From IMG/VR virus record IMGVR_UViG_2703718816_000003: DNA of 6,405 nucleotides. One strand, written 5' to 3'. Positions within the stretch are counted from its first letter, which is position 1, and every line of letters starts with the position of its first letter. Positions 1 through 3,000 of this stretch are shown here, one piece after another. This DNA is from a virus. Taxonomy: Duplodnaviria > Heunggongvirae > Uroviricota > Caudoviricetes. The position numbers were made by a program.

Positions 1-3000
1 ACAAACGTTTGAAGAAAAACTGGCTTCCCTGTCTGTGGTATTACAGAAGTGCGTGACGGGCGATGATGTGCGTCCGATGCTTGAACAGATGGTGAAGGAG
101 GCGGTAAGCCATATCCCTGTTCCGCGTGACGGTCGTGACTACGATCCGGAAGTACTGCAGAAGGCGGTGAATGATGCGGTCGCAAATATTCCTGTACCGG
201 CGAACGGTAAAAGTATCACTCCCGATGATGTGCGTCCGATGCTTGCGCAGATGGTGAAGGAGGCGGTAAGCCATATTCCTGTTCCGCGTGATGGTCGTGA
301 CTATGATCCGGAAGTACTGCAGAAGGCGGTGAATGATGCGGTCGCAAATATTCCGCAGCCGGCAGACGGTAAAAGTATCACCCCGGATGATGTGCGTCCG
401 ATGCTTGAGCAGATGGTGAAGGAGGCGGTAAGCCATATTCCTGTTCCGCGTGATGGTCGTGACTATGATCCGGATGTTCTGCAGAAGGCGGTGAATGATG
501 CGGTGAGTGCCCTGCCGGCTCCGCAGGACGGGCGTGATGCCACTGCACTGGAAATACTCCCCGCCATTGACGATCAAAAATCCTTTCCCCGGGGCACGTA
601 TGCCACACACCAGGGCGGACTCTGGCGGGCGTATGAAAAAACGCACGGGATGCGGGGATGGGAATGCCTGGTTGACGGGGTGGCGGATATTGACGTCAGC
701 ATGACGGGTGAACGGTTGTTCTCTGTGGTGGTCCGGCAGAGCAGTGGCCAGCGTACGGAAAAAACATTTTCCCTGCCGGTGATGCTCTACCGCGGTGTGT
801 TCAGGGCCGGTGAAACCTACCACCCCGGCGATACGGTGACGTGGGGGGGCTCGCTGTGGCACTGCAACAGTATGACCGGTGATAAACCCGGAGAAGCTCA
901 TTCATCAGGCTGGACCCTGGCTGCAAAACGTGGGCGGGATGCAGGAGGCGGAAAATGACGGCATTACTGACGCTGGAAGAGATCAAGGCGCATCTGCGTG
1001 TCGACCATGACGCGGATGATGACATGCTGATGGACAAGGTTCGTCAGGCTACCGCCGTGCTGCTGGCCTACATTCAGGGCAGCCGGGATAAGGTGATTCG
1101 TGAGGACGGTGAACTGATCCCGGGCGAGGCATTAACCCGGATGAAGGGGGCTGCCATGCGACTGACCGGGATGCTGTACCGGAATCCGGATCTTGCGGAG
1201 CGGGAAGAACTGCTTCAGGGGGAGCTGCCGTTTTCTGTTTCCGTGCTGATTTACGATTTGCGTTGTCCGACGGTGTTATGAGGAGGGGGAATGGCAATAT
1301 CTGCAGGTCGTCTGACACAGATGATAAGTGTTCTGAACCCGGTGTTAACCCGTAATGCTGCCGGAGAAATGACGGAAGAATGGGTGTCATGCGGGAAAAT
1401 TCATGCGGATATCCGTGGCAGGAGCAGCCGGGAGCGGATGCAGTCCGGTGCGGAAATGGCGCAGGCGGAAATCCGCATCTGGGTGCGCGGTCAGTCCGGT
1501 CGGGAAATCACGGCAGCGTCACGACTTCATGTGCTGAGTGGTCCCTGGCGTGACCGGATCCTGAACGTTGTCGGGCTGCCCGTGTCGGATGCGACCGGCG
1601 GGCGTCTGGAAATTCTCTGTCGGCTGGGAGGGGAAAAATGATCGAAACCCTGCTGGATTTTTCGGGGCTGGAGGACATCAGCCGCGATTTGCAGCTTCTG
1701 AGTGGTACGGAAAACAACCGGGTGCTGCGTGAGGCAACCCGTGCGGGTGCGAATGTGCTGAAAGAAGAAGTGGTGTTACGGGCACCGGTGCGCAGGGGAA
1801 AACTGCGCCGCAATGTGGTGGTCCTTTCCCGGCGCTCCCGCGATGGCGGGATGGAATCCGGTGTCCATATCCGTGGTGTTAATCCGGACACCGGTAACAG
1901 CGATAACACCATGAAGGCGGATAACCCGCGCAATGCTTTCTACTGGAGGTTTGTGGAAATGGGGACCGTGAATATGCCACCGCACCCGTTTGTGCGCCCG
2001 GCGTTTGATGTGCGCAGTGAACAGGCAGCGCAGGTGGCGATTGCTCGGATGAACCGGGCCATTGATGAGGTACTGAGACGATGACGGAGGCGGATTTGTA
2101 TCCTCATCTGGCGCATCTTGCCGGCGGGCAGGTGTACCCGTATGTGGTCCCCCTGCTGGATGGCAGGCCGTCGGTGGCGCTTCCGTGGGTGGTTTTCAGC
2201 CTGATTTCATCGGTGTCTGCGGACGTGATGGGCGGGCAGGCGGAGTCCTCAGTGTCGGTGCAGATAGACGTTTATGCCGGGACTGTGACGCAGGCGCGTC
2301 AGATACGTCAGGACGCCCGTGAAGCCATAATGCTGCTGGCCCCGGGATCCGTCAGTGAAATGCAGGACTATATTCCGGAAAACCGCTGTTACCGTGCAAC
2401 CCTGGAGTTTCAGGTCACGGTGTGACTTTTTCTTTTTTCTACAAAACCCATACCCCGCCGCGTGCGGGTTTTTTATTATCAGGAGGCAGAATGTCTGCTT
2501 TGTATGAACGCTCACAGCTGACGCAGGTGATGATTTCATCTGCCCCGGCGACTGCTGAAACTATGGATAAGGCGGAATATCTGCGCCTGGACTGCACCAT
2601 CAAGGAAGTCCAGTTCACCGCCGGTCAGAAACAGGATATTGATGTGACCACGCTCTGCTCCACAGAGCAGGAGAACATCAATGGTCTGGGGGCGTCGTCC
2701 GAGATTTCCATGTCGGGTAATTTTTATCTGAATCAGGCCCAGAACGCCCTGCGTGATGCCTATGACAATGACGCGTTGTATGCGTTTAAGGTGCTGTTTC
2801 CGTCCGGTAAGGGCTTTAAATTCCTGGCGGAAGTGCGTCAGCACACCTGGTCATCCGGTACCAACGGCGTGGTGGCTGCAACGTTCTCACTGCGTCTGAA
2901 AGGCAAACCGGTGTCCTTTGTGGTACCGCTGGCGTTTGTGAAAAATCTGGATAAGACACTTACCGTGAATACCGGTGCGTTGCTGACAATGTCAGTCAGT

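Follow-up and report, generated by a model that had tools for sequence, protein, structure and literature searches.

Gene X and its boundaries

The DNA analysed here, IMG/VR record IMGVR_UViG_2703718816_000003 (6,405 bases in all, referred to below as the window), covers the head-to-tail section of an E. coli prophage, long-tailed and of the Shiga toxin (Stx)/lambdoid type, and the subject of this report is its first gene, named X here. The window matches the chromosome of E. coli OkiPb01678, which came from bovine faeces, at 100% identity (window position 1 corresponds to position 7001 of the source-genome locus, L005), and Stx-converting phages such as 2851, BP-4795 and YYZ-2008 at 94–96%. 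In the source genome, X is an open reading frame (ORF) of 353 codons, the first 35 of which (MNERELSIIRALGEEFSAVLADLQRTFEGKIAAQA) lie directly upstream of the window and the rest inside it, the frame being open from base 2 to a TGA at 956–958. The features of X and of its downstream partner are as follows.

2–958, plus strand: gene X, last 318 codons and stop (ORF reconstruction in E. coli OkiPb01678; window 100% identical)
2–61, plus strand: last part of the helical segment at the N-terminus, ahead of the repeats (AlphaFold2 prediction for P0001, an orthologue with one repeat)
62–547, plus strand: three tandem stalk units of 162 nucleotides (54 amino acids) at 62–223, 224–385 and 386–547
527–955, plus strand: conserved beta-rich knob domain, 143 amino acids, the C-terminal part of X
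596–664, plus strand: first, weaker motif resembling carbohydrate-binding module (CBM) family 5/12, TYATHQGGLWRAYEKTHGMRGWE (hhalign against the second motif, P 0.009)
818–919, plus strand: second CBM5/12-like motif, YHPGDTVTWGGSLWHC...GWTL (Pfam PF02839, 21.5 bits; fold match)
843–849, plus strand: G7 homopolymer run in the most conserved motif (codons W-G-G), the second slippage-prone site of X (sequence)
955–958, plus strand: ATGA shared by the X stop and the adaptor start, indicating translational coupling (sequence reading)
955–1281, plus strand: head-tail adaptor Ad1 gene (gp6-like), downstream partner of X (Pfam PF05135, PHROG 40)

The ORF upstream of X in the source genome encodes an HK97-type portal protein of 454 amino acids that ends ...AMFRGILKK*, and X begins MNERELSIIRALGEEF, its ATG overlapping the portal stop as ATGA; a Shine-Dalgarno-like purine run for X, AGGGGGA, sits within the last portal codons. 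The portal domain lies wholly in the upstream ORF, and the window ORF gave no match to PF04860 or TIGR01537. Because the portal ORF ends intact and X starts at the overlapping ATGA, X is a separate gene with its own start codon and not a broken portal gene. The initial annotation, made from the window alone, had placed the gene in the head module and had seen it coupled to the head-tail connector gene, and the ATGA overlap with the adaptor is real. It had also held that the gene encodes no recognisable capsid, protease or scaffold protein; the upstream sequence shows that X is not the portal itself and that it stands next to the portal gene, on its 3' side, with translational coupling and, in many sister phages, an in-frame fusion between the two.

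The X product has 353 amino acids, a mass of 38 kDa and an isoelectric point (pI) of 5.2, and consists of an N-terminal helix of about 50 amino acids, three 54-amino-acid stalk units, each made of helices and proline loops, and the 143-amino-acid beta knob. The presence of at least three near-identical 54-residue repeats, reported earlier, is borne out: Tandem Repeats Finder gives a period of 162 nucleotides, 2.7 copies and 94% matches for the stalk, in which units 1 and 2 share 51 of 54 residues. Each unit falls into two half-units related to one another, each a short helix and then IPxPx(D/N)G, and the stalk as a whole is acidic (pI 4.7). In the AlphaFold2 model of P0001, residues 3–49 form an unbroken helix, predicted with low confidence; this model was used for secondary structure only, being too weak for fold searching.

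A conserved knob on a variable stalk

An exhaustive profile search with the C-terminal domain retrieved 7,087 clusters at E <= 1e-3, of which 639 pass E <= 1e-30, and the best 150 clusters are almost all stand-alone proteins of 200–500 amino acids that carry the domain at the C-terminus. The X protein of the window matches phrog_1289 over residues 1–318 (E 1.2e-163) and phrog_16748 over residues 176–318 (E 1.3e-97). Stand-alone relatives of X match PHROG 1289 as well, so that its label, "portal protein", was evidently inherited from fused E. coli entries; PHROG 2271 models the fused portal-X form. One protein, P0286, has no relative in IMG/VR. In PDB sequence searches, for which the fused protein and two family profiles served as queries, only portals and sub-threshold noise came up, and no solved homologue of X.

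The family shares a common plan, in which an N-terminal helix is followed by a highly variable repeat stalk and a conserved knob. The stalk repeats combine a helix with PxPxDGKD or with PEPEPLPD and number up to about 20 units, and collagen-like G-X-Y runs are frequent, with at least three triplets in 111 of 147 representatives and at least eight in 38 of the 147. These runs point to trimers. The window copy has at most two consecutive G-X-Y triplets, that is, no collagen-like run. The best matches among viral structures in BFVD (E 7e-5 to 1e-3) come from collagen-repeat and tail-fibre proteins that end in a CBM5/12-type module. The collagen-repeat fibres of uncultured Caudovirales with ChiC_BD/CBM5/12 tips resemble the X family in combining G-X-Y runs with a CBM5/12-type C-terminus, but they are longer (400–1,300 amino acids) and, as far as tested, not linked to a portal gene. 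Together with the family anatomy, these matches uphold the earlier description of X as fibre-like, with a stalk of repeats and a tip of the CBM5/12 type.

The two CBM5/12-like motifs previously proposed in the knob differ in standing. The second motif has the small three-stranded beta fold of chitin-binding domains, and orthologues reach 29.8 bits (P0077), 31.1 bits (P0248) and 26.1 bits (P0068) against PF02839 (CBM_5_12), the first two above the curated gathering cut-off of 26.2 bits; the window copy itself, at 21.5 bits (E 2.4e-4), falls below that cut-off. The first motif is weak and gave no direct Pfam match. In alignment A1, W111 and W129 are invariant and W106 nearly so, which makes them candidate aromatic residues for a binding face. 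Judging by the fold and the scores of its orthologues, the knob is probably a divergent member of CBM5/12. It departs from the chitin-binding modules of Serratia ChiB, Streptomyces ChiC and Erwinia endoglucanase Z in that the module of X lies within a larger 143-amino-acid domain with an inserted beta-meander and a degenerate second copy, and is not attached to an enzyme. A disulfide between two cysteines that are invariant in close relatives was considered and rejected, since distant members independently lose one or both. In four of 57 related IMG/VR loci the G run at 843–849 is one G shorter and X is truncated (325 or 379 amino acids).

The knobs of E. coli, Pseudomonas and Variovorax copies are 50–70% identical. 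Conservation across such different hosts argues against a host-specific surface polysaccharide as the target; the initial annotation had named host surface polysaccharide as one of two possible targets.

The two-gene layout across lineages

In each of 33 species-level genomes, which range from Enterobacterales to Pseudomonas, Marinobacter, Delftia and Variovorax, X forms an ORF of its own, of about 290–560 amino acids. The ORF 5' of X encodes a PF04860 portal wherever tested (25 of 25 loci, from Enterobacterales, Pseudomonas and Burkholderiales), and the ORF after X encodes an Ad1-type adaptor in 25 of 28 loci. In relatives from Salmonella and E. albertii (identity about 70%), the portal closes with ...LRGIIQNG* and X opens with MDERELS; the two genes overlap by eight nucleotides and there is no G run. 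A portal tail of the form ...RGI(L/I).. is kept in these two and in 25 other loci. The portal/X overlap in other genera varies from 4 to 16 nucleotides, without a homopolymer, and a Shine-Dalgarno-like block (AGAGGA, GAAGGAG or, in E. coli, AGGGGGA) lies 8–13 nucleotides before the X start in every lineage. The same portal-X-adaptor order is found in a high-GC lineage with a wholly different stalk repeat. When loci were retrieved by the portal gene, X came next wherever the downstream DNA sufficed and an adaptor gene was present; the locus without X (L194) also lacks neck genes and is uninformative. Relatives with another gene order were sought, and all lineages examined keep portal-X-adaptor, so that synteny cannot settle the location of the X protein.

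The split arrangement also occurs in cultured phages, namely PAJU2 of Pseudomonas (gp06/gp07), RHph_X2_26 of Rhizobium, BP-4795 (ORF58/59) and Lys8385Vzw, and in the transfer-competent Sakai prophage Sp10 (ECs_1974/1975), whose morphogenesis genes were rated intact and whose transfer to K-12 was shown (PMC2669165). On these comparisons, the two-gene layout is the conserved and, by all appearances, the ancestral one.

Two of these phages carry further genes near X. In RHph_X2_26 (L049 3094–4308), an SGNH-hydrolase gene lies between the capsid and portal genes, and the X homologue is labelled "putative portal protein". In PAJU2 (gp10–gp12, L132 6583–8526) and a metagenomic relative (L014 8675–12005), glycosyltransferase-like (sialyltransferase/MptE-like) and methyltransferase-like genes stand among the neck genes 3' of X, insertions that may hint at virion modification.

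Fused and split alleles in E. coli

In phage 2851 the X frame runs on upstream into an 860-amino-acid "portal protein", and a fused ORF is likewise present in YYZ-2008. The fused and split forms differ solely by one G in a run, TTCAGGGGG(G)AT, and the residues at the junction of the fused form read ...AMFRGDTEKMTER... As the G run in E. coli is the ribosome-binding site of X, the fused allele amounts to a one-base insertion (G5 to G6) in that site. Among IMG/VR junctions, 45 stretches are split (G5) and 37 fused (G6), the fused form making up about 45%, and X is intact at similar rates in the two (29 of 36 split and 24 of 30 fused copies). A tree built from about 1 kb of flanking sequence for 76 copies requires at least seven changes between the fused and split states, and one flank haplotype contains both. 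The lengths of X in E. coli copies, 245, 299, 353, 407, 461, 515 and 569 amino acids, correspond to one to seven repeat units. Fused alleles retain the ribosome-binding site and ATG of X, so free X may still be made from them.

Two other proposals concerning these alleles were set aside. A programmed frameshift of the tail chaperone G/GT type was rejected, since the G run is found only in E. coli and no slippery site is conserved elsewhere, and the substitution G128A at a family-invariant site was rejected as a sign of decay of X in fused alleles, as it is not specific to them.

The existence of fused forms bears on how the locus is read in databases. PGAP marks the portal and X of the source genome (L005 5536–7958) as one "frameshifted" portal pseudogene, which would make the locus a single portal gene, much extended at its C-terminal end, of which the window copy is a broken version. 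The 860-amino-acid ORFs of 2851 and YYZ-2008 and the fused model of PHROG 2271 agree with that reading. We consider it most improbable: across genera it is the split frame that is conserved, a ribosome-binding site and ATG for X are present everywhere, and the split alleles of BP-4795, Lys8385Vzw and Sp10 belong to inducible or transferable phages or prophages. Moreover, the first ~420 residues of the 2851 protein already constitute a complete HK97-family portal (TIGR01537, 349 bits, domain residues 45–388), and the portal core aligns end to end with solved portals of 424–431 amino acids.

Because X is fused to the portal in many sister phages, databases call it a portal protein. The Sakai record (NC_002695 1952466–1955050) presents the same layout as two "phage portal protein" coding sequences (ECs_1974/1975), and elsewhere X is labelled "portal protein", "frameshifted portal", "gp6-like connector, partial" or "hypothetical". 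Entries for X that are marked "partial" run into the thousands, some contigs ending inside the gene (L007/L008 position 1), and Klebsiella fragments of X are named "gp6-like head-tail connector, partial"; such entries evidently arise because the 162-bp tandem repeats break short-read assemblies. The study of the Sakai prophages lists portal defects for Sp6, Sp9 and Sp12, though Sp6 and Sp9 DNA was packaged or transferred (PMC2669165), and these "defects" might be the normal two-gene allele. X is, in sum, a widespread, misannotated, portal-coupled fibre gene with a homopolymer-driven fuse/split polymorphism.

Neighbouring genes and the head module

The head module was found in 1,247 of 5,426 complete E. 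coli genomes, at a median of five places per genome. Within it the capsid gene precedes the portal gene, rather than the portal coming first, and a conserved ORF of 56–99 amino acids overlaps the portal start (L001, L005). The major capsid protein, encoded upstream of the window, is a 645-amino-acid fusion of an S78 prohead protease and an HK97-type capsid domain (L001 5325–7262; L005 3387–5324). The module has no separate scaffold gene.

This last feature, the capsid-protease fusion, and the universal presence of X in the module, coupled to the portal gene, would suit a role for X as a non-virion assembly factor, a portal chaperone or procapsid nucleator that is removed or degraded by the capsid-fused S78 protease. 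We give this role a small chance, as a stalk length that is unconstrained between one and about 20 units would be unusual for a scaffold of defined geometry, and we know of no precedent in scaffolds for a CBM-type knob or collagen-like segments.

On the 3' side of X the window encodes the adaptor Ad1, a head closure protein, a gp10-like protein, a tail terminator, a major tail protein tagged with an immunoglobulin (Ig)-like domain, G/T chaperones and the tape measure protein. The major tail protein gene (2422–3207, annotated start 2491) carries the Ig-like domain at its C-terminal end (Ig_3, Ig_2 and I-set, as well as "Hoc-like" PHROGs), which places the Ig-type display module on the tail tube and not on the head. 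The tail chaperone pair (3174–3901) consists of a gpG-like ORF ending with TAG at 3594–3596 and a gpT-like ORF at 3620–3901; an A-AAA-AAG slippery heptamer at about 3585–3591, shortly 5' of the G stop, is presumably the usual −1 frameshift site for G/GT. A short 12-nucleotide tandem repeat in the tape measure gene (4162–4188, 2.2 copies) is probably trivial.

The Ig-like domain has a bearing on the earlier proposal that X is a capsid decoration of the Hoc type, displayed at many sites of the shell and binding host or environmental glycans. A stalk with a CBM-type tip and the position of the gene in the head module, immediately ahead of the neck genes, are compatible with such an adhesin, and CBMs are known as decorations of siphophage virions (PMC6669499). 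Searches for Ig family domains gave no match in X, the Ig matches of the window belonging to the major tail protein, and no other known decoration fold was found in X. The capsid gene lies two genes upstream, X being linked and coupled to the portal gene instead; about 45% of E. coli copies are fused to the portal, and the conserved tip runs contrary to host-specific glycans. A capsid-wide adhesin is therefore improbable, and coupling to the portal and adaptor genes suggests a place at the vertex.

Possible placements at the portal vertex, outward or inward

The portal and the adaptor form 12-copy rings, and the coupling of X to both of their genes suggests a low-copy protein of the portal vertex rather than a capsid-wide decoration. 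Taken with the trimers suggested by its relatives, X is, from its sequence, probably a low-copy, trimeric fibre of that vertex. Whether such a fibre would face outward or inward divides the two readings that we take most seriously.

We tentatively favour an outward-facing neck or head fibre, a reading by analogy that we hold to be possible though short of probable, because the characterised proteins of this anatomy are known as external; to our knowledge this applies to every one of them. The N-terminal helix would anchor X at the portal/adaptor vertex, the protein being made in roughly portal-like amounts; the repeats would serve as a spacer of adjustable length, and the knob would either bind a conserved N-acetylglucosamine (GlcNAc)-type glycan (peptidoglycan, lipopolysaccharide core or poly-GlcNAc) or nucleate fibre folding and trimerisation. 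In E. coli, a G5 to G6 slip in the ribosome-binding run joins X to the portal C-terminus while the internal start is kept. An outward fibre might act as the fibritin whiskers of T4 do, or as the neck passage structure of lactococcal siphophages, which bears CBMs.

If X is external, its nearest functional analogues would be these whiskers and neck passage structures and the phi29 head fibres. The phi29 head fibre gp8.5 is dispensable and trimeric, has a stalk of tandem helix-turn-helix repeats and binds quasi-three-fold sites of the capsid through an N-terminal beta domain, whereas X begins with a helix and its gene is linked to that of the portal. T4 fibritin (wac) and the neck passage structure resemble X in being elongated repeat fibres with a C-terminal folding or binding knob, encoded by neck-associated genes and expected in low copy at the portal-proximal vertex. 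They differ in that X, whose neck attachment is putative, can be fused to the portal C-terminus, and they are related to X neither in sequence nor in fold. The neck passage structure of 936-type phages is known to carry CBMs (PMC6669499).

Several points weigh against an outward-facing trimeric fibre. The window copy lacks a collagen-like run, and a trimer is inferred for it from relatives only. The full-length AlphaFold2 model of P0001 has low confidence (predicted local distance difference test, pLDDT, 61.8), and the conservation of the knob is unusually high for a receptor-binding domain. Fusion to the portal C-terminus is common, at 37 junctions against 45 split, and a second, independent portal-X fusion exists in a distant lineage (P0256, 1,237 amino acids). 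Phage 2851, which is reportedly infectious, carries the fused allele. In all solved portals known to us, the C-terminus lies inside the capsid. A literature search returned no paper on the X protein, nor virion mass-spectrometry, electron microscopy or binding data on it. The phi330 paper does report mass spectrometry of purified virions, with coverage for short-tailed phages only; the virion proteome of AH14a was rejected as evidence on X, as it belongs to an unrelated SPP1-type module.

The internal position of portal C-termini, combined with the fused alleles, makes an internal X a serious alternative, if a somewhat doubtful one. X would here be a fibre tethered to the portal crown and projecting into the DNA-filled lumen, its N-terminal helix binding or, in fused alleles, continuing the C-terminal tail of the portal; it could organise or gate the DNA end, in the manner of the P22 portal barrel or SPP1 gp7, or be released on ejection, so that the CBM5/12-type knob meets peptidoglycan in the periplasm. 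In-frame portal fusions are frequent, with X as often intact in them as in split alleles; the two states have interconverted at least seven times, and the P0256 fusion is unrelated to those of E. coli. The place of X is always after the portal gene, with coupling between the two, and a knob so highly conserved across host phyla would fit a partner that is itself conserved, be it DNA, the portal or peptidoglycan. Portal C-terminal regions are known that are unresolved inside capsids (Jabs preprint).

The analogues nearest to an internal X would be the P22 barrel and SPP1 gp7. The SPP1 gp7/MuF minor head proteins, expected in low copy and with variable C-terminal modules, are like X encoded directly 3' of the portal and sometimes fused to it. 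The MuF domain (Phage_Mu_F, PF04233) was not among the Pfam matches of X (E up to 1, and up to 0.01 in a second search), which counts against an internal role, and the architecture of X is entirely different. As with the P22 barrel (PMC4992974), the portal of fused alleles has a long and partly helical extension at its C-terminus, one that would be directed into the capsid. X differs from the barrel in its short helices, interrupted by proline-rich loops, in its hypervariable length and in its terminal beta knob, and it is ancestrally a separate protein. Also unfavourable to an internal X are the acidic, proline-rich, collagen-like and variable stalks with a CBM-type knob, which, as far as is known, occur only in external fibres, and the folded trimeric knob, which would be unable to pass the portal channel. 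The G run is confined to E. coli, and since fused alleles keep the ribosome-binding site and ATG of X, fusion may be incidental; this weakens the argument from portal fusion for an internal X without removing it.

A more specific form of the internal hypothesis joins these elements: X would be a crown-tethered internal fibre, collagen-like in many relatives, with a CBM5/12-type knob, and in E. coli the short G tract of its ribosome-binding site would repeatedly flip it between a free and a portal-fused state, a heritable switch that would alter the composition of the portal and possibly DNA retention or ejection. We regard this combination as unlikely; if true, it would represent a kind of internal head structure that has not been described for siphophages.

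Implications

The misannotation of X means that a conserved and possibly virion-borne protein has been overlooked, and intact prophages may be scored as defective through misannotation of their portal genes. The head module to which X belongs occurs in many Stx phages. Should X be an external glycan-binding fibre, as we tentatively favour, it would be a candidate accessory adhesion factor of these phages; should it instead be internal, it would constitute a new kind of portal-associated structure.

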